Of a stretch of 49,366 nucleotides of DNA, positions 11,001 through 48,045 are shown piece after piece (position 1 is the stretch's first letter; each line of letters begins with the position of its first letter). This stretch comes from an uncultured Candidatus Saccharibacteria bacterium (GTDB lineage Bacteria; Patescibacteriota; Minisyncoccia; Phycocordibacterales; DATDWN01). The stretch lies in contig CAYXWL010000001.1 of NCBI GenBank assembly GCA_964468795.1, positions 96,221-145,586 on the forward strand. Reading direction: 5' to 3'. The translations under genes and the position numbers were made by a program. The notes under the pieces were generated by a model. That model was given only the letters and a program-made list of their open reading frames with translations. It was not told where the DNA came from and did not search any database.

Positions 11001-11710
11001 TTAAGCTGAGAGAGAAGCTTGTTCATGTCTATCTTCTTGAAGATGTTGAAGATAGCTTCTGCTCCGATTGAAGCTTCGAACATTGTTCCGTACTTCATTC
11101 CGAAGTTGTAGTACTCGACTTCATCAAGCACTCGTCCTTCCTGAATAGACTCGATCTCCCGCTTTGCATTAAGAAGCATTTCCTTTACTGCCTCTTTTGT
11201 CTTTTCATCCTGCAAGCTTTTTATTTTTGCCTTGTACTCTGAATCAAGATCCTTTAGATATCTTGTCCTGTCCTCTTCTGAAACTTTTGTAACGATGTAT
11301 CCGGCAAAGTATATAACCTTCTCGATATCTGCAACTGAAATACCTAGAACCATAGCGATTCGGCTTGGCATAGACTTTAGGAACCAGATGTGAGAAACCA
11401 CTGTTGCAAGCTCGATGTGTCCCATTCGCTCTCTTCGAACGATAGATCGAGTGATTTCAACTCCACATTTTTCACAAACTATTCCCTTGTATCTTATTCC
11501 TCGGTACTTTCCGCAATAGCATTCGTAATCCTTGTCTGGGCCGAAAATCTTTTCATCGAAAAGTCCGTTCTTTTCAGATCGCTGAGTTCTGTAGTTAATA
11601 GTTTCAGGCTTTGTAACTTCGCCGAAAGACCACTCCTTAATTCTCTCAGGAGAAGCGACTTTAAGCGCTATTGTCTCGAAATCATTTGAATTTTCTGTTC
11701 TTGTTTTCAT
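8045..11710 (-). CDS. rpoC: DNA-directed RNA polymerase subunit beta'
   Basis: NADFDGDQM catalytic motif, zinc-binding Cys cluster CYCGKY...CEKCGVE, 1221 aa. Confidence 0.97.
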
Positions 11711-11732
11711 GTTTTTGATTGAGAATTAAGTT

Positions 11733-14700
11733 TTAAGCTTCGTACTTGTGACCGTCTAGCAATTCTTTCGACCCTTTCTTTATCTGAACATCCAGTGCCA
11801 AACCTCTAAGATTGTTTAGCAACACGTTAAACGACGCAGGCGTATTCATCTGAGTGATAGGAAGTCCTTTCACGATTGCGTCGAACGCTGCTGATCGTCC
11901 TGTAATATCGTCAGACTTTATTGTCAAAATTTCCTGCAGAGTATGTGCAGCTCCGTGACCGAGTAGCGCCCACACTTCCATTTCTCCAAATCTCTGTCCT
12001 CCATTCTGAGCCTTTCCTCCGAGAGGCTGCTGTGTAATAAGAGAGTATGGACCGATTGATCGCATGTGGATCTTGTCCTCCACCATGTGGTGAAGCTTCA
12101 TTATGTACATGTAGCCCACTACAACTTCCTGCTCGAAGGCTTCTCCTGTTCTTCCATCATACAGCTTCATCTTTCCTGATTCTGAGAAGCCAGCTTTCTT
12201 TAATTCGTCTTTTATTTCATCGTTTGTAGCTCCAACGAAAGGAGGAACGATAGCTTGATATCCAAGTGTATTTGCTGCAAGACCCAAGTGAAGCTCGAGA
12301 ATCTGTCCCAAGTTCATTCTTGATGGCACTCCAAGCGGTGTCAAAATAACATCAATAGGCGTTCCATCTGCCATATATGGCATATCCTCTTCTGGAAGTA
12401 TCTTTGAAATAACTCCCTTGTTTCCGTGTCGTCCAGCAAGCTTGTCTCCTACAGACACATTTCTTAGCTGTGCAACCTCGATATAAATCTGCTTTATGAT
12501 TCCTGAATCAAGCTTGTCTCCCTTTTCTCGTGAGAATATTTTTACGCTGATAACTCGTCCTCGCTTTCCTCCTTCCATTCTCTCTGATGTATCTTTTACA
12601 TCATGAGCCTTCTCGCCGAAAAGGCTTCGAAGTAGTCTTTCTTCTGGAGTAAGCTGTGTCTCTCCCTTTGGAGTAATTTTTCCAACCAAAATGTCTCCTG
12701 GTCTTACCTCTGCTCCAACTCTGATGATTCCGTCTTCTGCCAAGTTCTTAAGCTTTGACTCTCCGACGTTTGGAATATCGCATGTTGTAACTTCAGGACC
12801 TAGCTTTGTATCTCGCACGTTCACTACGAACTCTTCAATATGTATAGATGTGAACTTTGAATCCTTTACTACTCTTTCAGAAAGGATGATAGCGTCTTCG
12901 TAGTTTGATCCAGACCATGACATGAAAGCAACGAGCATGTTCTGACCGATTGCAGCCTGACCATTGTCTGATGCTGATGTGTCAGCAAGAAGATCGCCTT
13001 TCTTAACTTTGTCTCCGACTGAAACTGAAGGTCTCTGGTGGAAAGCTGTAAATCCGTTTGTTCTGGAGAAAGTAATCAGCTTGTATTCCTTCTCCTTTCC
13101 TTTGTCATTCTTTACAACGATCTTTACGCCGTCAGCATGAGTAACTACTCCCGCTTCTTCAGCGATAACAAGTCGTCCAGTATCTCGGATAGCGTCTACC
13201 TCCATTCCTGTAGCAACTAGAGGAACTTCTGGGATAACGCAAGGAGTTGCCTGCCTCTGCATGTTTGATGCCATTAGCGCTCGGTTTGCTTCGTCGTGGT
13301 TTAGGAAAGGAATCATTGATGTGGCAATTGAAAATGCCTGGCTAGTTGAAACATCAATGAAATCAACCTTGTCCTTTGAAACTGTGCTTGGCTCTCCGCC
13401 AATTCGAACTTCTACCTGATCAACAGTAATCTTGTCGTCTTCTACCGGAGTTGCTGCATGGGCAATAGCATACTCCTCTTCTTCTGAAGCGTTTAGATAA
13501 ACTATTTCGCCTGTAACTTTTCCGTTCTTTACTTTTGCATATGGAGTCTCGATCATTCCAAAGCTGTTGATTCGAGCATAAATAGCAAGCCTTAGCACAA
13601 GACCGATGTTCGGACCTTCTGGCGTATGTATTGGACAAATTCTTCCATAGTGAGATGGGTGAACGTCTCTAACTTCGAATCCTGCTCGTGTTCGGTTTAG
13701 TCCTCCAGGTCCGAGAGCTGAAAGAAGTCTCAGGTTTTCGATTTCAGCAAGAGGATTTTCTTGCGTCATGAACTGTGAAAGCTGGTTTGTTGTAAAGAAT
13801 TCCTTGATTCTTGCCTGAAGTGGTTTTGGAGAAATAAACTGTATAGGCAAAGTAACATCCGTCTCTATAGTAGACATCTTGTTCTGAATGTTTCTCTTTA
13901 TCTGGGCCATACCAGTTCGAATCTTTGCTTGGAATAGTTCTCCGACAAATCGAACTCGCCTTGATCCTAGGTGATCAATATCGTCTTCCTGTGCATGAGG
14001 AGTGTTGTTCAAAAGCGCGATGTGAGAAATGATTGTGACAATATCGTCCAAGTTTATTGTCTTTCTCTTAAGCTCCTTCTCATCCATCTTCTTTCCGAAC
14101 CTCTTGTTAAATCTGTATCGTCCTACAGGTGAAAGGTCATATCTCTCGGCATCAAATATAGACATGACGAATTCCTTGGCATTTTCTGCTGTAGCCAAGT
14201 CGCCGTCTCGCAATTTTTTGTGAATCTCAATAAAAGCCTCATCTATGCTCTTTCCGTGATCCTTTGCAAGAGTCTTTACAATAGACTGTGTGCCGAATTC
14301 ATCTCCTTCAAATAATTTCTTTATGGCCTCATCATCTTTTGCTCCAAGCGCTCTAAGCAGAGTTGTAGCAGCAAACTTTCGCTTTCGGTCGATTCGCACA
14401 TATATAACGCCGTCGTGATCTGACTCGATCTCAACCCATGCGCCTCTTGAAGGAATAACCTTCGCACCGAACATTTTTCGTCCCTTTATCTCGCCTGCTG
14501 TAAAGAATACTCCGTATGATCGGGCTAGCTGAGGCACGATTACTCGCTCAACTCCTGAAATAATAAATGTTCCGTGCGAAGTCATTAGGGGGAAGTCTGC
14601 CATGAAAATTTCCTGCTCTTTTTCTGAACCGATTACATGGTTCTTTAATTTTACCTTCACCTTCAAAGGAGCTTCGTAAGAAAGCTTGTTGTCCTTTGCG

Positions 14701-22533: not shown

Positions 22534-24198
22534 TTAGTCAAGAAACAGCCTCGCCAGCCGAATTTTAAGGTAAGTTGGCTTCTTTTTTTTCTTTGCTAGG
22601 AGATTGTAAACTGGAGAAAGGGTCGTTGTTCCACACTCAGCAAATGCCTTGAGTATGTCTTCAAATTCGCTTCTCTTTAATTCGCGCTTAAGATATGAAA
22701 TGTCCGGACATCTTCCCTCAAGGACCAGGTCCTCGATATGGGAAATTATGGTTTCTTCTTTCACCCCTCTTTCTTTTGCAATCTTTGACAGAGGCATTTC
22801 CTGCTCGAGCATTTCGGTAGTTATTTCGTGAGTAGATTTCTTTAGCTCTTTCTCTTTCTTTTTTATCTTTACTTTTTCCTCCGGCTCTATAGATTTTATC
22901 CACTCTTTTTGAATATCAGCCAATTCATGTTTGGAAAGATTTTTCAAATCCATTACCGCATCCTCTGACTGTTCTCTGAATTTCTCATCCATTTCCAAAA
23001 CTTCATTATCAACCAATAGTGACATGTCATTGAACCCAAGAAGCTTGATACCATCAAGACTCCTGACTCTCGAAAGGGCAACGTAGCCCATGCCTCTTAC
23101 GAAAGATTTTGAGAGATCTACTTCCATGGCATCGAGAGACATGCCTTGGCTTTTGTGAACGGTAATAGCCCACGCCAATCGGAGCGGGATTTGGGATATT
23201 TCGGCCTTGACCTTGCCTTCCTCCTCTACTTTCCAAGACTGAGAAGAAACTGTTACCTCCATACCGCTGTTTGTTAGAACCACAGGATCTCCGAAAGAAT
23301 TGAAATCTTTTATAACTCCGAGAGTTCCGTTTACATAAAGTCCATCGGCATGATTTTTTGTAAACATCACTCTAGCTCCGACTTTTAACAGCAAAGCCTC
23401 TGGTGAAAGACAACTTTTTTTTAGAGTCTCTACTAGCCCTTGAGAGCCTTTGCTTGTCATGCTGAAAAGCTTTGATTTTCCTTCGATTAGATCAAGATGT
23501 CTGTTATTTACAGTATCGACATCTATGTTATGTGTGTACAGCCTTGTGTATTCAGAACCAGCTTCAGGATCTTTCCCGAATCGGGACTTTAGCATTTCGA
23601 TAGTATTTTTTGTCACTCGATTCTCCCTTATTTCATTTAGTATGGCCAGATACGCATTGTCCTTTTGCCGATGCTGTTCTGTAAGGTAGCATATTGTAAA
23701 TTTTGAAGCTGGCCAGCTGTCAGCTTTGTAGGCAAATTCTGATTCAACAACTTCTCCACGAGTTACCGGTGGAAGCTGAAAAAAATCTCCACATAAAATA
23801 ATCTGCATGCCTCCAAACGGCTTTTCGCTTCGCTTCATCTGCCTGCAAATCCACTCGATAAGATCCAACCTGAAATGATGAAGCATTGAGATTTCATCTA
23901 TTATCAAAACTTTAGTCCTGTCGAAGCGTTTGTACAAATATTGTCGCTCCATTAGATCCTCAATGTCATAGTCAGTGAGGATGTCGCGCACGCCAAGTCC
24001 AGACCATGCATGTATTGTCATTCCTCCAATATGAGTTGCAGCAATTCCTGTCGAGGCGGTAACTGCAACATCTACTCCGTGCGATTTTAAATACGAAACA
24101 TACGCATTAAGAACATGTGTCTTTCCGCTTCCTGCTGGGCCTGTTAAAAAAACATTGCGACCCATTTTTAAAATATCCAATGCTTCTGCCTGCAACAT
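22534..24198 (-). CDS. PIF1/RecD-like superfamily-1 helicase with C-terminal HTH-like domain
   Basis: GPAGSGKTH, VLIIDEISML, ILCGDFFQLPPV, TVHKSQGMSLD, GYVALSRV motifs. Confidence 0.85.
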   Translation of the reverse strand: MLQAEALDILKMGRNVFLTGPAGSGKTHVLNAYVSYLKSHGVDVAVTASTGIAATHIGGMTIHAWSGLGVRDILTDYDIEDLMERQYLYKRFDRTKVLIIDEISMLHHFRLDLIEWICRQMKRSEKPFGGMQIILCGDFFQLPPVTRGEVVESEFAYKADSWPASKFTICYLTEQHRQKDNAYLAILNEIRENRVTKNTIEMLKSRFGKDPEAGSEYTRLYTHNIDVDTVNNRHLDLIEGKSKLFSMTSKGSQGLVETLKKSCLSPEALLLKVGARVMFTKNHADGLYVNGTLGVIKDFNSFGDPVVLTNSGMEVTVSSQSWKVEEEGKVKAEISQIPLRLAWAITVHKSQGMSLDAMEVDLSKSFVRGMGYVALSRVRSLDGIKLLGFNDMSLLVDNEVLEMDEKFREQSEDAVMDLKNLSKHELADIQKEWIKSIEPEEKVKIKKKEKELKKSTHEITTEMLEQEMPLSKIAKERGVKEETIISHIEDLVLEGRCPDISYLKRELKRSEFEDILKAFAECGTTTLSPVYNLLAKKKKKPTYLKIRLARLFLD

Positions 24199-24314: not shown

Positions 24315-24680
24315 ATGAACATCTCAAAAGAAAGGCTTGCAGAGCTGAGCCATATGAACGAGCACGACCTGCTCCATGAGGCTCACACGCAAGGGCTCGA
24401 GTTTACCCAGTGTCTGGTGAAGGAAGTTACTCGGCAATTCACAGAAGTGGATTTGTCAGGCATCGACTTCAGCAAGTGCACAACAATCGATTCGGCAATC
24501 ATGATCGTGCCGAAGGAATTCAAGCTCAGGGAAAACTTCCTGCGCCGTTGTGTCATCGCCTGGGAATCAAACGAAAATGCCCAGGCGCAGGGAGCAGAAA
24601 GCCGCTTCAAGACACCGGAACACATTCGTTCCGGATCAGCAGTCGGGATTGCCATCCTGACACAGATTCTTTCCGCCTAG
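24315..24680 (+). CDS. GC-rich hypothetical protein (unit E), hydrophobic C-terminal tail
   Basis: GGAGG lies 9 nt before the ATG. C-terminus is SGSAVGIAILTQILSA. No family recognised. Confidence 0.55.
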   Translation: MNISKERLAELSHMNEHDLLHEAHTQGLEFTQCLVKEVTRQFTEVDLSGIDFSKCTTIDSAIMIVPKEFKLRENFLRRCVIAWESNENAQAQGAESRFKTPEHIRSGSAVGIAILTQILSA

Positions 24681-24687
24681 TACCAAG

Positions 24688-24747
24688 ACCGCACGTTCCG
24701 TTGAGACGAGTCCGTCGACTCTCTCTTCGGGTCGTGCGGTGTTTTTT
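24688..24747 (+). terminator. compound hairpin terminator after unit E
   Basis: Outer stem accgcacg/cgtgcggt, inner stem gagtc-cgtc-gactc, then GTTTTTT. Confidence 0.55.
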
Positions 24748-24760
24748 ATATAAATCTATG

Positions 24761-24929
24761 TAACAAAAAGTAACTCATAGTTTTTTAGAACATCCGGAGG
24801 GCTTGAGCATGGTTTTGTCAACGTCCCGAGCAAAGCGAGGGTTCATTGAGAAATCAAGCCCGAGGACCGAGAAAAATTTCCCGCTGGGAAATTTTTCGTT
24901 TCTAAAAAACTATGAGTTACTTTTTGTTA
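24761..24929. repeat. structured inverted-repeat element R2 with 30-bp perfect terminal inverted repeats
   Basis: 24761-24790 is the exact reverse complement of 24900-24929. Inner helices are gggcttga/tcaagccc and gaaaaatttccc-gct-gggaaatttttc. The right arm contains the last 3 codons and the stop of trmD. Confidence 0.75.
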
Positions 24930-25624
24930 ATACTTTTTCTCTTCCACTCCTCAATCTCCTTATGATTCCCTGAAAGTAAAACTTTTGGAACTTTATATTT
25001 CTTTCCTTTGTATTCAAAAACCTCAGGCCGTGTATACACATCATGACTTGAGACTCGAGACTCCTCGAGAGAATTAAAATTACCCAAAACACCTTCTACT
25101 TGCCTTGAAACAGAATCAAGCACTATCATTGCCGGCAATTCTCCGCCAGTTAGAACAAAAGGCCCTACTGAGAGATCTTGCATCTTAAAAGCTTTTTTTA
25201 CTCGAGCATCAATACCTTCATACCTTCCGCATACAAAAATAATATCAGTAAATTTTTTTGCACTTTTCTTTGCATACTCTGTATCAAACTGCTTTCCTCC
25301 AGGAGAAAAAAACACAATTGAAGTTCGAGATTTGAGGCTTGAGGCTTGAGATTTGTTTTTCCGCTTTTCATTTCTCTTATCTCTCTTCTCAATACTCTTG
25401 AGTGCAGCTTCGATTGCTTTTATGACTGGAAGAGCCTGTATAACCATGCCTGGTCCGCCAGCATACGGCTTTTGATCAACCCTTTTCCATTTGTCTCCAG
25501 AATAGTCCCGAGGATTATAAAAGGTCACTTTTATTTTCTTATCCTCAATCGCACGCTTAATAATCGACTCTGAGAGATATGAGTCGAAAGCGCCAGGAAA
25601 CAATGTAACGATATGAAACTTCAT
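24917..25624 (-). CDS. trmD: tRNA (guanine37-N1)-methyltransferase TrmD with a K/R-rich internal insertion
   Basis: MKFHIVTLFPGAF, GGPGMV, CGRYEGIDARV, LTGGELPAM motifs. Start at MKFHIV with TATAGT 7 nt upstream. Confidence 0.9.
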   Translation of the reverse strand: MKFHIVTLFPGAFDSYLSESIIKRAIEDKKIKVTFYNPRDYSGDKWKRVDQKPYAGGPGMVIQALPVIKAIEAALKSIEKRDKRNEKRKNKSQASSLKSRTSIVFFSPGGKQFDTEYAKKSAKKFTDIIFVCGRYEGIDARVKKAFKMQDLSVGPFVLTGGELPAMIVLDSVSRQVEGVLGNFNSLEESRVSSHDVYTRPEVFEYKGKKYKVPKVLLSGNHKEIEEWKRKSINKK

Positions 25625-25663
25625 TATTTTCACTATAACACATTTTTTATATTTTGTATACAT

Positions 25664-33975: not shown

Positions 33976-34671
33976 TTAGATCCACTTTTTGATTTCTAGG
34001 GCTTTTTTAGCAGCCATCTGCTCTGCGTCCTGCTTTGATTCCCCTTCTCCTGTTGCGATAAGATCCTTGCCTACGTATACACCAACTGTGAATTTCTTTT
34101 TGTGGTCGAGTCCTGACTCTTTTACTGTTTTATATGATGGAGTAATGCCCTCAAACTCCTGAGCTTTTTCTTGGAAAAGAGATTTGGAATCAATATGGCT
34201 CTTTTTTGAAATAATAGTATCAATTAGAGGCATGAAATGAAGCTCAATAAATTTTCTTGCTTCATCCATCCCTTTGTCCAAATAAATCGCGCCGATTAAA
34301 GCTTCCAACGCATTGGCCAAAATGTACTGCCTTGCTCGTCCTATATCCTTGCTCTCGCCTTTTGAAAGCAGAAGAAAATCTCCCATCTCAAGTTTAGATG
34401 CGACAGAAGCGCAAGTATCTGCGTTTACTAAGGCAGACCGATATGCAGTCAGCTCACCCTCCGGCTTTGTCGGATATTTTTTAAAAAGGTTGTCAGTGAT
34501 AACAAGTTCGAGAACAGCATCGCCTAAAAACTCTAGTCTTTCATTGTGAGTAAGGCCAGATTGTTTGTTTTCGTTTATATATGATCGGTGAACAAAAGCT
34601 TGTGTTAAAAGACTCTTATCACCAAATTCAATATTTATTTTCTTCTCGAATTCCTTGAAATCCACAGTCAT
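33976..34671 (-). CDS. rnc: ribonuclease III
   Basis: NERLEFLGDAVLEL signature and a C-terminal dsRBD. TCGACA-17-TATAAT, with the -10 element 9 nt before the ATG. Confidence 0.92.
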   Translation of the reverse strand: MTVDFKEFEKKINIEFGDKSLLTQAFVHRSYINENKQSGLTHNERLEFLGDAVLELVITDNLFKKYPTKPEGELTAYRSALVNADTCASVASKLEMGDFLLLSKGESKDIGRARQYILANALEALIGAIYLDKGMDEARKFIELHFMPLIDTIISKKSHIDSKSLFQEKAQEFEGITPSYKTVKESGLDHKKKFTVGVYVGKDLIATGEGESKQDAEQMAAKKALEIKKWI

Positions 34672-34754
34672 AATGTAGGTATTATATCATTAAAAAACTG
34701 CTTTGTCGATTAACCTATTTTTATGACTATATAGTTGTGCATATTTCTTTATCA

Positions 34755-34954
34755 CTACAGTATTTTTAGAAACGATAAATTCTCCAGCAGAGAATTTATC
34801 TCTCTCCTTACAGGAGCAGTACACCTTTCGCAAAGTTTTGCTCAAGGTCTTGCGAAGCAATAATATTGCTTCTCACCTCGGCTTCTATTCGTCAAGGCAT
34901 GGTACCTTGACGAAACCATGCTAGAAGCCTGCGTATTTTCTAAAAATACAGTAG
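34755..34954. repeat. structured inverted-repeat element R3 (inverted homolog of 46599-46818)
   Basis: Terminal inverted repeats match 17/18 (34755-34772 vs 34937-34954). Hairpin gataaattctc-cagca-gagaatttatc. The 55-nt block 34804-34858 matches the reverse complement of 46701-46755 with 2 mismatches. Confidence 0.75.
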
Positions 34955-35043
34955 CTCAACGAAATATGCTTCAGATCCGATTTTATTAACAAAATATTGT
35001 AAAAGGAAATAAGTATGCTTTTCCTAAATTTGTTGAGTTGATA

Positions 35044-35122
35044 TTTTTTAAGAGGCTTCGCAAGGCGGGTAGCCGAGACTTGAGGAATTTTTCAGCAGAA
35101 AAATATCCGTACTCTTAAAAAA
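35044..35122. repeat. short structured inverted-repeat element R3b
   Basis: 11-bp perfect terminal inverted repeats ttttttaagag/ctcttaaaaaa. Shares gcttcgcaag with R3/R4, tgaggaattt with R1, and a CAGCAG-loop AT-rich hairpin with R3. Confidence 0.55.
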
Positions 35123-35156
35123 TAACAACGAGAAAGAATTTAGGAAAATCCTCAAG

Positions 35157-36038
35157 CTACTTTTTTAAAAGAATATTTATGGCTTTCGTAACTAAAGGCA
35201 AAATATCATTATAAAAATTAAGATCCAAAATATCCTGAAGCTTAAACCATCGAGCATCGTCTAGACCTCCCTTATCCTCTTTTACAATATCTTTAAATGG
35301 AGATTCAGCTAAATAGTAAACTACGTGTTTTTTAGTTTTTCCCTTTTCTGGGTGATAAGCGATGTATTCATTTTCTCCGAGCTTGTCTTTTAGGGTGATA
35401 TCAAGACCCATCTCTTCCTTTACGCCTCGTATTATTCCAGCCTCGATTTCTTCATCCGGTGCAATCTTGCCTTTTGAAAGAGTCCATTTGCCAAAAACAT
35501 CATGCACTAAAGCAAGGTAAATATCTTCCCCGTCTTTTGCAAAGACAACTGCTCCCCCCAAATTTTCAGTAATAACTGCGGAGTTTTTCTTTTCCTTTGT
35601 CGTATCATCCTTTCCAGGCTCACCAAGCTCTTTGTAAACTGCACCCAATACTCCGTTTACGAATTTGCTGGAAGTTTCACCTCCAAATGTCTTTGCAAGC
35701 TCGATAGCTTCATTGATAGCAACTTTAGGAGGAACTTGAGTTCTGTCTGCAAACAAAAGCTCGAACAGACCTATTCGCAAAATATTCCTGTCCATCACGC
35801 TTATCTTTTCTATTGGCCAATCAGGAGCGGCTTTTTCTATTATGTGATCAATATCTTTTTGCTTTTCAATTACGCCTTTTATGAGATTTTCCATAAAAGA
35901 AAAATCTCCATGACCTGGAGCAAATTCCTCGACATTGCGCACAAATATTTCTATAACATGATTAGAGTCGCTTCCGTTGAAATCGGATTCGAATAGAGAT
36001 TGTAAAACTATAGATCTAGAAAGGTGCCTATTTGCCAT
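35157..36038 (-). CDS. nusB: NusB antitermination factor fused to a C-terminal NUDIX hydrolase domain
   Basis: NusB-like N-terminal half (RSIVLQSLFESDF..., PPKVAINEAIELAKTFG). C-terminal Nudix box GKIAPDEEIEAGIIRGVKEEMGL. Confidence 0.8.
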   Translation of the reverse strand: MANRHLSRSIVLQSLFESDFNGSDSNHVIEIFVRNVEEFAPGHGDFSFMENLIKGVIEKQKDIDHIIEKAAPDWPIEKISVMDRNILRIGLFELLFADRTQVPPKVAINEAIELAKTFGGETSSKFVNGVLGAVYKELGEPGKDDTTKEKKNSAVITENLGGAVVFAKDGEDIYLALVHDVFGKWTLSKGKIAPDEEIEAGIIRGVKEEMGLDITLKDKLGENEYIAYHPEKGKTKKHVVYYLAESPFKDIVKEDKGGLDDARWFKLQDILDLNFYNDILPLVTKAINILLKK

Positions 36039-46322: not shown

Positions 46323-46550
46323 ATGAGGGAGTATGACCTTTTCAAAGTGATCGCAGGCACGGACCTGCGGGGATGCTTCAGCCGGGACTACCGGCTGTGG
46401 GAAGAGTGGGTAGCAAATCCCGCCCTCAAGGCCAGGGGATATAAAATCCTCAGGCAATGGTATTCTGTCGACGGCGACTCTTTCGGACCTTTGGTCCGCG
46501 GAGTTATAGTCGAAAAGGACGGCGAGAAAAAGCTTCTCACATACGGCTAG
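46323..46550 (+). CDS. GC-rich hypothetical 75-aa protein (unit K)
   Basis: AAGGAGG SD. No family recognised. Confidence 0.5.
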   Translation: MREYDLFKVIAGTDLRGCFSRDYRLWEEWVANPALKARGYKILRQWYSVDGDSFGPLVRGVIVEKDGEKKLLTYG

Positions 46551-46556
46551 AGTCAG

Positions 46557-46582
46557 GGCGCTGGAGAAATCCAGCGCCTTTT
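46557..46582 (+). terminator. intrinsic terminator after unit K
   Basis: ggcgctgga-gaaa-tccagcgcc-tttt. Confidence 0.65.
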
Positions 46583-46598
46583 AACAAAAAGAATTTTA

Positions 46599-46818
46599 AA
46601 AACTTCGTTGAACCATAATTTTCGAAAGACTCCGCAAGCCTTGAGCTGGTTTGGTCAAGGTATCCTGCCTTAACGAATCAAGATCGAGGTGAGAAGCGCA
46701 GCTTCGCAAGACCTTGAGCAAAGCTTTGCGAAAGGTGTACAGCTCCTGTAAGGAGGAAGTGAGCGTAGCGCTGGCGGAGCGAATGGTCTGGAGAAAATTT
46801 TGGTGAAAAAGAAGTTTT
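46599..46818. repeat. structured repeat element R4 (inverted homolog of 34755-34954; 5' module shared with 24761-24929)
   Basis: 46701-46755 matches the reverse complement of 34804-34858 at 53/55. cgaggtgagaagc is identical in both. Short outer pairing aaaacttc/gaagtttt. Confidence 0.7.
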
Positions 46819-46826
46819 CTCATTAC

Positions 46827-46855
46827 TTGAAAAAAGCCCAATTTTTCGCTATAGT
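46827..46855 (+). promoter_or_regulatory. pheS promoter (TTGAAA-17-TATAGT), implies a leaderless mRNA
   Basis: The -10 element ends 8 nt before ATG 46864. No SD. Confidence 0.5.
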
Positions 46856-46863
46856 TTGCTCAT

Positions 46864-48045
46864 ATGTCAAAGACGGCAAAGGAACTCTACTCCTCCCCAG
46901 AACTAGAGAGAAATGAATATTTTGAAACTGATCCTAAAGACGCAGAATTGCGAGCAGAACTCCAAAAAAGGACAGACACCGAGAGCCTTCGAATGAAGCG
47001 CTATTTGTCTATGGACGACCTTTCACGAAAGGAAGGCAGTCCTATTAAAGAGATCGCAGACAGGGTAAAAGCTCTAGAAACTTTCAAAAAATTTGATGTC
47101 ATAACTATTCCAGAGATTGTGCCAGTAGTTCAGACTTTTGATCTCTTTGACTTCCCCGCAAATCATCCAGCACGAAGCAAATCTGACACATACTACGTTT
47201 CAGAAGATTATATTTTGCGAACACACATGACGGTCATGTGGTACTACTATTTCCGAAAGCCGGAGATAAAAGAAAAAATGGCAAAGGGTTTGGACATGGC
47301 AGTAATTTCTCACGGGAAAGTTTACAGAAAAGATGAGATAGATAGACGACACATGAATATCTTCCATCAGGTGGATGGCTTATATATCTGCAAGAAGAAC
47401 GAAAAAATTATTGACCAAGAAGACTTGAAGGAAGTTTTGGTAGAAGTTGGTCAGGCAGTATTTGGAAATGATATTGCATATAGATTTAACCCAGACAACT
47501 TCCCCTACACACACGACTCTTTGGAAATGGAAGTAGAGGTCAACGGCCAGTGGGTGGAAGTGCTAGGTGCAGGAGTTGTACAGCCGAGCGTTTTGGAAAA
47601 ACTTGGAGTTGATTCAAACACATACAACGGCTGGGCATTTGGATTTGGCCTCGAGCGACTAGCCATTATTTCAATGGAACTACCAGACATACGCCTCTTA
47701 TGGTCAGACGACCCTCGTGTAACAAAACAGCTAGTTTTGGGTCATAAGTTTGAGGAGGTTTCCAAGTTCCCTCCTGTAGTACGGGATATTTCGTTCATAA
47801 TTTCTAAATCTTTCGTATTGAATAATTACTTTGACCTTGTGCGGGAAATTGGCGGAGACCTTATAGAAGAAGTAAAGATAATAGATACATACGAAAATGA
47901 GGCAAAATTCGGCAAGGACAAAATAAGCTATGCTTTCAGGATCACATACAGGTCACTCGAAAAAACCCTGACAGACGAGGAGGTAAATGCAATTCACAAA
48001 AAAATAGAAGATGCAACGCGAGAGCTTGGCGGACAGGTTCGATAA
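46864..48045 (+). CDS. pheS: phenylalanine--tRNA ligase alpha subunit
   Basis: Class II motifs (HPARSKSDTYY, LRTHMTVMW, GWAFGFGLERLA). No pheT follows. Confidence 0.9.
   Translation: MSKTAKELYSSPELERNEYFETDPKDAELRAELQKRTDTESLRMKRYLSMDDLSRKEGSPIKEIADRVKALETFKKFDVITIPEIVPVVQTFDLFDFPANHPARSKSDTYYVSEDYILRTHMTVMWYYYFRKPEIKEKMAKGLDMAVISHGKVYRKDEIDRRHMNIFHQVDGLYICKKNEKIIDQEDLKEVLVEVGQAVFGNDIAYRFNPDNFPYTHDSLEMEVEVNGQWVEVLGAGVVQPSVLEKLGVDSNTYNGWAFGFGLERLAIISMELPDIRLLWSDDPRVTKQLVLGHKFEEVSKFPPVVRDISFIISKSFVLNNYFDLVREIGGDLIEEVKIIDTYENEAKFGKDKISYAFRITYRSLEKTLTDEEVNAIHKKIEDATRELGGQVR

Follow-up and report, generated by a model that had tools for sequence, protein, structure and literature searches.

We analysed a 49,366-nt stretch of DNA (the window) from an uncultured Candidatus Saccharibacteria bacterium, in which two structured repeats, R3 and R4, lie next to housekeeping genes. 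R3 occupies a 485-nt spacer with a gene for a NusB-nudix fusion on one side and rnc on the other, while R4 lies upstream of pheS. R3 is two nested repeats, an outer palindromic backbone and an inner discrete core, and the core, a 72-nt unit of three hairpins that is also carried by R4, is the main subject of this report. The principal features of the two loci are as follows.

33976-34671, minus strand: rnc
34681-34709, minus strand: rnc promoter, consensus sigma-70-type TCGACA-17-TGnTATAAT, downstream of R3 (context, outside the element)
34755-34954, minus strand: R3 composite unit, a backbone closed by an 18-bp stem and carrying the core; homology to R4 runs on to about 34966 (TTCGTTGA)
34804-34875, minus strand: core copy 1, 72 nt, in R3 (covariance model 93.5 bits, E = 3.5e-25)
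35157-36038, minus strand: nusB-nudix fusion gene
46612-46804, plus strand: R4 composite unit, backbone and core, with a closing stem of about 46612-46623 with about 46794-46804
46690-46755, plus strand: core copy 2, 66 nt, in R4 (covariance model 79.6 bits, E = 3.3e-21)
46827-46855, plus strand: pheS promoter, consensus TTGAAA-17-TATAGT, downstream of R4 (context)
46864-48045, plus strand: pheS, monomeric-type

An earlier note, made from the letters of the window, had described R3 as a structured element with an inverted homologue upstream of pheS, and its sequence comparisons were reproduced. Positions 34804-34858 match the reverse complement of 46701-46755 at 53 of 55 positions (96% over 55 nt), a second block relates 34868-34918 to 46647-46697 (51 nt, 82%), and a gapped blastn alignment of R3 with R4 covers 162 nt at 77.8% identity (E = 1e-30). 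R3 is bounded by an 18-bp inverted repeat with one mismatch (34755-34772 and 34937-34954) and contains the 11-bp hairpin GATAAATTCTC-CAGCA-GAGAATTTATC. The helix said to be maintained by compensatory changes is present as GGCTTCTA/TAGAAGCC in R3, CTTGA/TCAAG in R4 and GGGCTTGA/TCAAGCCC in a third repeat, R2, and is directly followed by CGAGG in all three. R3 and R4 do have the same orientation relative to the local genes and do lie upstream of the consensus promoters of rnc and pheS respectively. The minus strand of R3 folds at -96.9 kcal/mol (z = -10.3) into a closing stem and five hairpins, the plus strand at -83.4 kcal/mol (z = -9.4), and the corresponding z-scores are -11.2 for R2 and -3.0 for R4.

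The 53/55 block of the earlier note is the core, which is separate from the backbone, far more widely conserved, and set exactly 3' of CGAGG. Core copy 1 reads UGAG, a first hairpin Pa (GAAGCAAU/AUUGCUUC), GCAAGA, a second hairpin Pb (CCUU-GA-GCAA...UUGC-GA-AAGG), UGUACUG and a third hairpin Pc (CUCCU-GUA-AGGAG), with CGAGG as its 5' flank and A as its 3' flank; folded as DNA it forms the same three hairpins (z = -5.4). In core copy 2 Pa is shortened (GAAGC-GCA-GCUUC), and Pb and Pc are the same as in R3. The layout of the whole family is RGG, then UGAR, Pa, YGCAAGA, Pb, UGUACNG and Pc as the core of 66-85 nt, and then a purine. Pa is a 5-9-bp hairpin with a free loop; Pb has the form CCUU-GA-GCNN...NNGC-GA-AAGG, with tandem G.A pairs and a free tip; and Pc has 5-6 bp, closed by U-A or C-G around a GUA loop.

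Relatives of the core were first found through an exact 20-mer, which led to two Paceibacterota and two Saccharibacteria metagenome-assembled genomes (MAGs), with homology extending over about 80 nt. A degenerate-pattern search of a metagenome collection returned at least 120 contigs, nearly all of them true relatives, and the family-wide counts in this report rest on the loci among the matches listed in that search (designated L with a number). A covariance model built from 33 copies matched at least 129 sites in 100 sources and 22 sites in 20 sources, with scores of 25-101 bits. This amounts to at least 151 core copies in at least about 120 metagenome or MAG loci, the named MAGs belonging to Paceibacterota and Saccharibacteria, and identity between cores from different classes of the candidate phyla radiation (CPR) is about 85%. 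A scan of the window with the same model finds exactly the two copies listed above, the next best match scoring 15 bits.

The three stems are maintained throughout this collection. In the model-fitted alignment 97.3% of cells are paired, compared with 73.5% after shuffling and 36-51% when the partners are slid, and double substitutions occur in all 20 of the 20 core pairs. An alignment made with MAFFT, unfitted to the model, gives 97.4% paired cells (79.1% shuffled, 32-50% slid), and every Pa and Pc pair covaries in it. The earlier note had argued for a selected structure from covariation between the repeats of the window; the three paralogues alone are insufficient as proof, but the roughly 150 relatives elsewhere do establish covariation, and the double substitutions bear out selection on the structure. 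That the fold of the core is under selection we regard as very likely.

It could still be supposed that the core arose through assembly error or is just an ordinary repeat in decay, its structure following from palindromic sequence alone. Within the core, at 34828, contigs assembled from short reads of the same organism come to an end, as expected of a repeat, and long perfect inverted repeats such as those of locus L108 can be products of assembly. The element is nevertheless present in over 100 independent assemblies, which come from different projects, every Pa and Pc pair has compensatory changes that the controls do not reproduce, and ENA contig L002 spans R3 intact, which leaves an artefact scarcely credible.

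To compare sites with and without the core, the 35-nt flanks of each copy were joined and searched against all loci. Sixty-one blast alignments cross the joined junction, and the empty partners are uninterrupted 5S rRNA and tRNA genes. A filled site X-core-Y corresponds to an empty site X-NN-Y, meaning that the core replaces two nucleotides. The empty sites are listed below, with the strand of the core relative to the RNA gene.

5S rRNA site 1, antisense: GGAATGGG-AA-GAGGTGTG
5S rRNA site 2, sense: CTTCGGAGGG-AG-AGTAGG
tRNA-Ile D arm, sense: GGTAGAG-CA-TTCGA
tRNA-Lys, antisense: AAAAGGG-AGC-TGCTC

Similarly, R2 and the copy of the backbone in the relative L132 read CGAGG^AC where R3 and R4 hold the core; in R2 this empty core site lies between 24865 and 24866 (GCCCGAGG^ACCGAG). 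In 78 distinct contexts the flanks are non-random only at positions -3 to -1 (R, G, G) and +1 (purine), with RGG as the 5' flank in 56-68 of them, and the core is 70-85 nt long, mostly 72-76 nt. These contexts contain no terminal inverted repeats at the core ends, the UGAR end and the Pc end being unrelated, and neither they nor the filled/empty pairs contain a target duplication. The junctions could be reconciled neither with a 2-bp crossover nor with a target duplication, and other choices of boundary did not help.

The orthologous loci of relatives tell the same story for the two copies of the window. The order nusB-nudix to rnc is shared by the three closest relatives, in which the spacer is 3, 119 and 93 nt compared with 485 nt here, and in relative L131 the spacer upstream of pheS is 196 nt, with the promoter stretch and other promoter-proximal sequence kept and R4 absent. 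The core covariance model finds no core at the orthologous nusB-nudix/rnc and pheS loci. The earlier note had proposed that orthologous intergenic regions be compared for insertion polymorphism, and close relatives indeed lack R3 or R4, a presence/absence pattern that fits its candidate of an element like a miniature inverted-repeat transposable element (MITE) or a repetitive extragenic palindrome (REP). The copies are spread across CPR lineages and have no target duplications, so the case that it had set against a selected structure, copies confined to one genome with target duplications, does not apply. Its proposal of a mosaic repeat family is supported, but the 53/55 block turns out to be a separate inserted module rather than just the best-kept part of one element. 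We conclude with high confidence that the core is a discrete inserted module.

Some copies are arranged in unusual ways. In L119 one core lies within the Pa loop of another, and in the head-to-tail arrays of L070 and L121 Pc is joined directly to the AG of UGAG. Weaker model matches and pattern searches also yield variants with longer Pb hairpins (GGUUGUCGAUAUUUUGA...; CUCAUUGAG...), in which both ends of the core are kept. In L024 (660-1086) and L103 (2310-2700) a Pb-variant element of the form GUGAG-Pa-...-Pc, with a long Pb stem, sits in the anticodon loop of a tRNA-Ile pseudo-copy; the Pb loop of the element encloses a full-length, undamaged tRNA-Ile(GAU) gene, and the D arm of that pseudo-copy is occupied by a canonical core. 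The element seems to have supplied a substitute for the tRNA-Ile gene that it disrupted.

The sites occupied by the core are often RNA genes or their surroundings. Among 116 distinct cores, 24 lie within 300 nt of a tRNA gene, and in at least 12 loci a core is found in the spacer between the 23S and 5S rRNA genes. In the 11 of these 23S-5S loci that were aligned (L018, L027, L030, L032, L033, L047, L052, L058, L061, L097 and L117) the core lies inside a partial copy of the 5' part (5' third) of 5S, beside an intact 5S gene, and in nearly all copies with an inferable direction it is antisense to the rRNA transcript. Pa and Pc of these pseudo-5S cores vary by compensatory changes, Pc being for example CUCC/GGAG, CGCC/GGCG, CCCC/GGGG, CUUC/GAAG or CCUC/GAGG, which implies that the pairing is maintained in place or refreshed by gene conversion. 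L061 has a further partial 5S (the 3' part) downstream, with a more divergent core-like insert. Group I introns, a known feature of CPR rRNA genes, were called by Rfam above threshold in the 23S genes of L047 (1115-1314), L117 (2253-2479), L058 (1846-2209) and L030 (4555-4811). Where core and backbone occur together, the unit usually begins right after an upstream terminator-like hairpin and often has a second one downstream. In L086 (2696-3005) and L087 (1281-1545) a unit of about 190 nt has the 3' end of the neighbouring tRNA gene (T arm and acceptor) repeated on either side of it, once directly and once inverted; its closing stem is tRNA-derived sequence, and the terminator hairpin of the tRNA is extended to a palindrome with arms of about 50 nt.

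Orientation and neighbourhood separate the core from its surroundings. Relative to the upstream gene 47 cores have the same and 43 the opposite orientation, and relative to the downstream gene the figures are 44 and 42 (both among the matches listed); the 150 nearest open reading frames (ORFs) match 152 Pfam families with at most four members each. Because orientation is even and the neighbouring genes are diverse, these data argue against a leader, riboswitch or 3'-UTR role for the core family, and against a partner encoded in cis. A cis role tied to rnc or pheS is unlikely since R3 and R4 lie upstream of the promoters and relatives with the same gene order do without the elements. A T-box, riboswitch or leader for pheS or rnc is ruled out by position, orientation and absence in relatives.

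A broader form of the same idea is that the core, or the unit of about 190 nt, is a functional RNA kept by the host, either a small RNA or a 3'-end or processing module, with paralogous copies that might, for example, stabilise or terminate upstream transcripts or bind a protein. Conserved junction strands and covarying stems are typical of such RNAs, and the longer unit is conserved from Saccharibacteria to Paceibacterota MAGs, usually just past a terminator-like hairpin. The proximity to tRNA genes noted above (in L007 it sits among them), the compensatory changes of the copy kept in at least 11 23S-5S loci, the strand preference of G.U pairs described below and the modules of hairpin and U-run that by eye end R3 and R2 all point in this direction. 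Yet the orientation is random with respect to neighbours, and in the rRNA operon the G.U pairs are on the strand that is untranscribed there; there is no conserved promoter and the flanks are random beyond 3 nt; and the element is absent at orthologous loci of close relatives, occurs nested, in tandem and in pseudogenes, and has no Rfam match. On balance we consider a host-maintained RNA, with any of these functions, unlikely.

The RNA genes that are interrupted by a core are truncated and have an intact copy alongside, unlike genes with an intron, which are intact and needed. The truncation could reflect survivorship, since a cell with only one copy of an essential RNA gene would die if that copy were interrupted, or it could be produced by the insertion process itself. 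Another suggestion is that the core moves at the level of RNA, as a small ribozyme-like or intron-like element that enters abundant structured RNAs and is carried back into the genome by reverse transcription and recombination. The targets are often structured RNA genes (two sites in 5S, the D arm, anticodon loop and T loop of tRNAs, and the hairpin of another core), filled copies that are partial and lie beside an intact gene are what ectopic recombination of a cDNA could give, and a junction conserved as in small ribozymes, a GUGAG 5' end and head-to-tail arrays would all be in keeping with it. However, no reverse transcriptase was found near any copy, among either the recurrent or the nearest ORFs. 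RNA genes are hit on either strand, 5S and tRNAs in antisense as well, and the partial copies keep the 5' part and some leader, whereas an incomplete cDNA would leave the 3' part. Many copies also lie in plain intergenic DNA and no known ribozyme family in Rfam matches, so that movement as RNA appears quite improbable.

The stems themselves give some indication of which strand folds. On the sense strand there are 41 G.U wobble pairs compared with 26 A.C pairs, and the excess of G.U stays on the strand of the element even where local transcription is antisense (12 compared with 3, a small sample). As the excess follows the strand of the element, the sense strand may be the folding one in any context, and the strand bias of the wobbles fits a single-stranded DNA intermediate better than read-through RNA.

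The sole recurrent neighbour of the core is a gene for a large serine recombinase (Resolvase, Recombinase and Zn_ribbon_recom domains), found in 12 loci. The core could then be an attachment or inversion site, or a preferred target, of these enzymes and could be spread or rearranged by them. In L007, L084, L100, L108, L128 and L010 the gene lies 90-500 nt from a core, a core lies 330 nt upstream at the homologue locus L136, Pb is imperfectly palindromic, and in L108 two cores lie in 329-nt perfect inverted repeats that flank 10.8 kb beside a recombinase gene. Serine recombinases act on double-stranded sites with fixed spacing and a 2-bp crossover at both junctions. In the core, by contrast, the stems covary, loop lengths vary and no dinucleotide is repeated at both junctions; the orientation of core and gene varies, only three of the 150 nearest ORFs encode the enzyme, two of three further recombinase loci are without a core, and the association may merely reflect that both lie near tRNA genes. 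A recombinase site is therefore a doubtful explanation, one that we would give little weight. The repeats of L108 lie at 411-739 and 11498-11826 (329 nt, with the cores) and at 11822-11936 and 13406-13520 (115 nt), the latter pairing the region upstream of the recombinase gene with the gene's own 3' coding part; L108 may contain a segment that inverts or switches in the manner of a shufflon, or may be misassembled.

The backbone is a repeat of about 130-170 nt, palindromic and REP/MITE-like. An alignment shows it to be common to R2, R3, R3b and R4, four copies in the window, and to relatives, including the L132 copy; the core is carried by R3 and R4, and R2 and R3b are without it. A search of the window with the backbone by nhmmer returned R2, R3, R4 and, weakly, R3b, and two further repeats named in the earlier note, R1 and R5, were not located. 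The additional backbone features are given here.

24761-24929, plus strand: R2, backbone without core, with a 30-bp perfect closing stem
34774-34800, minus strand: sub-terminal hairpin of the R3 backbone, 11 bp, with a CUGCUG-type loop on the minus strand, followed by UUUAUCGUUUCU
34881-34927, minus strand: helix of the R3 backbone, GGCUUCUA/UAGAAGCC, around the hairpin UUCGUCAAGG...CCUUGACGAA; this is the compensated helix, with other sequences in R2 and R4
35037-35129, plus strand: R3b, a backbone-type palindromic repeat without core, with an 18-bp inverted repeat (94%), beside R3 in inverse orientation

The order of parts is a closing stem, CCGCAGG, the helix enclosing a hairpin, CGAGG, the sub-terminal hairpin with a T-run, and the second arm of the closing stem. 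The closing stems, of 18, 30 and about 12 bp, are unlike in sequence between copies, and R2 holds the same sub-terminal hairpin module as R3 with compensatory changes. By eye the backbone ends in a hairpin and U-run in R2 and less clearly in R3, where the sub-terminal hairpin is terminator-like on the minus strand; a terminator scan reports none in either, and its run over 34600-35250 gave no terminator-like site. The typical backbone site, also read by eye, is just 3' of a hairpin and T-run that resembles the terminator of the upstream gene. Thus R4 starts about 30 nt past a terminator-like hairpin (46557-46582 including TTTT) that is itself 3' of a 75-codon ORF, and R2 is preceded by a hairpin and T-run at 24685-24750, downstream of the ORF 24315-24680; both were recognised by eye and are unreported by the terminator scan. 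The right stem arm of R2 (24900-24929) forms the last four codons (N-K-K) and stop of trmD (24917-25663, minus strand), so that R2 was either inserted into the 3' end of trmD or copied the end of trmD in inverted form. We propose that the backbone is a separate and older palindromic repeat, resembling REPs and bacterial interspersed mosaic elements (BIMEs), that was entered once by the core; R3 and R4 would share both layers because the core entered a backbone once and the composite then spread.

Taking these observations together, the explanation that we favour, and to which we give about an even chance, is that the core is a non-autonomous, structure-dependent mobile element acting as a folded single strand. 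Mobilisation in trans as a single strand is a part of this explanation for which we judge the case to be similarly balanced, while an HUH-type single-strand transposase, as for REP and IS200/IS605, can be named as the enzyme only tentatively. The directly observed structure and covariation, filled and empty sites, spread over lineages, even orientation and absence at orthologous loci form its basis. In such a scheme the three hairpins would present the conserved junction to an enzyme encoded elsewhere, which would cut and join the core into new sites after RGG, with two nucleotides replaced and neither terminal inverted repeats nor a target duplication left behind. The core ends (UGAR-Pa-GCAAGA and GNACNG-Pc) would be the required recognition parts, and Pb a dispensable and exchangeable arm able to carry cargo. 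The intermediate would be single-stranded, probably DNA, and of the sense strand. In this genome a backbone already holding the core would have been copied to two places, one copy (with R3b) entering between nusB-nudix and rnc and pushing these genes 485 nt apart, and the other landing upstream of the pheS promoter.

Several points weigh against this mobile-element explanation. The replacement of two nucleotides at the target fits no textbook transposition chemistry, and together with the lack of replication-strand bias and the unlike end hairpins it argues against the textbook IS200/IS605 mechanism in particular. Elements of the IS200/IS605 type usually show strong strand bias; local GC skew on the strand of the core, which is a proxy for replication direction, is positive in 19 loci and negative in 24. 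All-against-all clustering and Pfam searches of the 150 nearest ORFs found no transposase or other partner, the recurrent and nearest ORFs in about 750 kb of flanks include no TnpA, TnpB or RAYT, and a search of the fetched loci for an autonomous version (two core ends around an ORF) gave only short variants and the two with a tRNA. The core in a partial 5S keeps its pairing in at least 11 loci, which is more like maintenance in place through a host function or gene conversion than selfish decay, and the filled RNA-gene copies are always partial and beside an intact gene, which simple insertion does not explain. As regards the alignments, the search pattern fixed the outer Pb pairs and the joining strands GCAAGACCUUGAG and GCGAAAGG (as the string GCAAGACCTTGAG...GCGAAAGG), so that the invariance of GCAAGACCUUGAG and GCGAAAGG is partly built in, and G.U pairs are favoured by alignment to a covariance model.

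A more speculative possibility, which we think unlikely at present, is that the core represents a new class of mobile structured nucleic acid in CPR, with the minimal three-way junction as its active part. The core might then act as a small ribozyme, or serve an unrecognised recombinase as scaffold or guide, and it would target stem-loop-rich DNA or RNA (tRNA, 5S rRNA, terminators and its own hairpins) and carry cargo in Pb, including a replacement tRNA gene.

The remaining features of the window provide context for the repeats. Its G+C content is 41.8%. By the genes present and by protein similarity it belongs to Parcubacteria/Paceibacterota, close to Zambryskibacteria, MAGs of this kind having GyrB at 85-88% and RNase III at 75-83% identity. 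The nusB-nudix gene encodes NusB fused to a C-terminal Nudix hydrolase domain, a fusion kept in L133-L135. The product of pheS is a single-chain, mitochondrial-type phenylalanyl-tRNA synthetase (alpha-subunit core and FDX-ACB/PheT C-terminal domain) that scores under the NCBIfam cut-offs (SrmL 248, cut-off 300; pheS_mito 227, cut-off 258), and some relatives (L132) have a classical pheS and pheT pair in its place. The 75-codon ORF upstream of R4 (46323-46550, plus strand) is unannotated, has a strong ribosome-binding site (AGGAGGAG) and lies between a 131-aa ORF and R4. Near R2 is a gene for a 554-aa SF1B (RecD2/TraA-like) helicase (22534-24198, minus strand), with the 121-aa ORF 24315-24680 in between; NCBIfam finds no HUH or relaxase domain in the helicase, and no link to the repeats was established. 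Cumulative GC skew has its minimum at about 36-46 kb of the window, where gene orientation turns from mostly minus to mostly plus, and a replication origin may lie in or near this stretch (gyrB is nearby); R3 and R4 are on opposite sides of the minimum. ARAGORN found no tRNA or tmRNA in the window.

CPR bacteria (Patescibacteria) have tiny, streamlined genomes that are usually called poor in repeats and mobile DNA. An element of about 72 nt with a sharply defined fold is nevertheless common to different CPR classes, repeatedly in or near tRNA genes, 5S rRNA genes and terminators. If mobile, it would be among the smallest structured mobile units known, its conserved ends and replaceable, cargo-bearing Pb would suggest a natural insertion scaffold, and an unrecognised enzyme or RNA-based mechanism may await discovery, because no standard transposition chemistry accounts for the junction rules. 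A practical effect is that short-read assemblies break at the element, which also inflates intergenic regions that would otherwise be read as regulatory. Locally the effect is one of structure: relatives have nusB-nudix and rnc side by side or nearly so, and here 485 nt of repeats part them, with the rnc promoter just downstream of R3 in the spacer.

Searches of databases place the core outside known RNA families. Rfam 15 at gathering thresholds gave no match in the window, and on 24 further loci it called only tRNA, 5S, 23S and group I introns, never the core. At E values up to 10, the region 34650-35200 gave MIR2606 over 35006-35163, outside the core (28.9 bits compared with 139.7 needed, E = 0.032), and, antisense to the core, RsaD over 34760-34888 (22.4 bits compared with 50 needed, E = 0.1). 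There was no core match in IMG/VR, in the plasmids of PLSDB or in phage genomes, and the motif is absent from the RNA-family catalogue and the searchable literature, the TIGR-Tas arrays of CPR being unrelated tandem guide arrays. Several RNA candidates were discarded. A hammerhead-like reading of UGAG-stem-CGAAA fails as ACCUU/AAGGU merely extends a hairpin and CUGA is absent, and a likeness to the Tetrahymena P3-P5 strand (GCAAGACC...GCGGGAAAGG) has no model match in support. A housekeeping RNA (6S, SRP, RNase P or tmRNA) is ruled out for an element that is multi-copy and polymorphic and has no model match. The core is also too short for a group I or II intron at 66-85 nt, and the Rfam intron models match real introns in the same loci but never the core.

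Among mobile and repetitive elements, classical MITEs, which derive from DDE transposons, carry terminal inverted repeats, duplicate their target and stay within a single genus or family, whereas the core has no such repeats or duplications and is common to different CPR classes; it was rejected as a MITE on these grounds. Ribosomal intervening sequences are likewise stem-loop inserts that replace a few nucleotides in helices of structured RNA genes with a patchy distribution, but the 23S or 16S genes that hold them are functional and RNase III excises them, while cores are found in truncated pseudo-copies, in either orientation, and mostly in intergenic DNA. Group IIC introns and integron attC sites share a preference for terminator or stem-loop DNA and the keeping of structure over sequence; the core differs in being 72 nt long, in lacking domain V/VI and R'/R'' boxes, and in having no reverse transcriptase or integron integrase nearby.

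In function the core comes nearest to REPs and REPINs and to miniature derivatives of IS200/IS605, and the likeness to structured MITEs and rRNA intervening sequences is looser. REPs and BIMEs, and the REPINs mobilised with RAYT, are closer in several respects. They too are short non-coding sequences that occur in many copies between genes, often right behind a gene or a terminator, with hairpins that show compensatory change, (presumed) mobilisation in trans and a long life within lineages, and the backbones R2 and R3b resemble BIME-like mosaics. The core was nonetheless rejected as a REP or REPIN: its head is UGAR after RGG in place of a GTAG-type 5' tetranucleotide, it consists of three distinct hairpins around conserved strands, with no palindrome or inverted pair, and no RAYT gene was seen. 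It also replaces two nucleotides of its target and occurs in pseudo-copies of RNA genes, and there is no sequence similarity as judged by eye.

The comparison with IS200/IS605 elements and the palindrome-associated transposable elements (PATEs) derived from them is closer at the ends. The core has no terminal inverted repeats and no target duplication, its asymmetric ends have sub-terminal hairpins (Pa is 3 nt from the 5' end and Pc at the 3' end), its middle is variable or cargo-bearing, and it is inserted beside a short specific motif, RGG, with weak evidence that one strand is the structured one. It differs in having unlike end hairpins, a distance from hairpin to end of 0-3 nt, a loss of two nucleotides of target and no GC-skew strand bias, the strand test giving the near-even 19 and 24 loci by that proxy. 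With Correia/NEMIS, BOX, RUP and ERIC elements and the Rickettsia palindromic elements (RPEs) the core and its backbone share the character of small modular mosaics with strong folds and a sporadic distribution among relatives, and with RPEs and Correia elements they share insertion near or into genes, as where R2 supplies the last codons of trmD. We have therefore filed the core as a small non-autonomous structured repeat that stands outside every named family.

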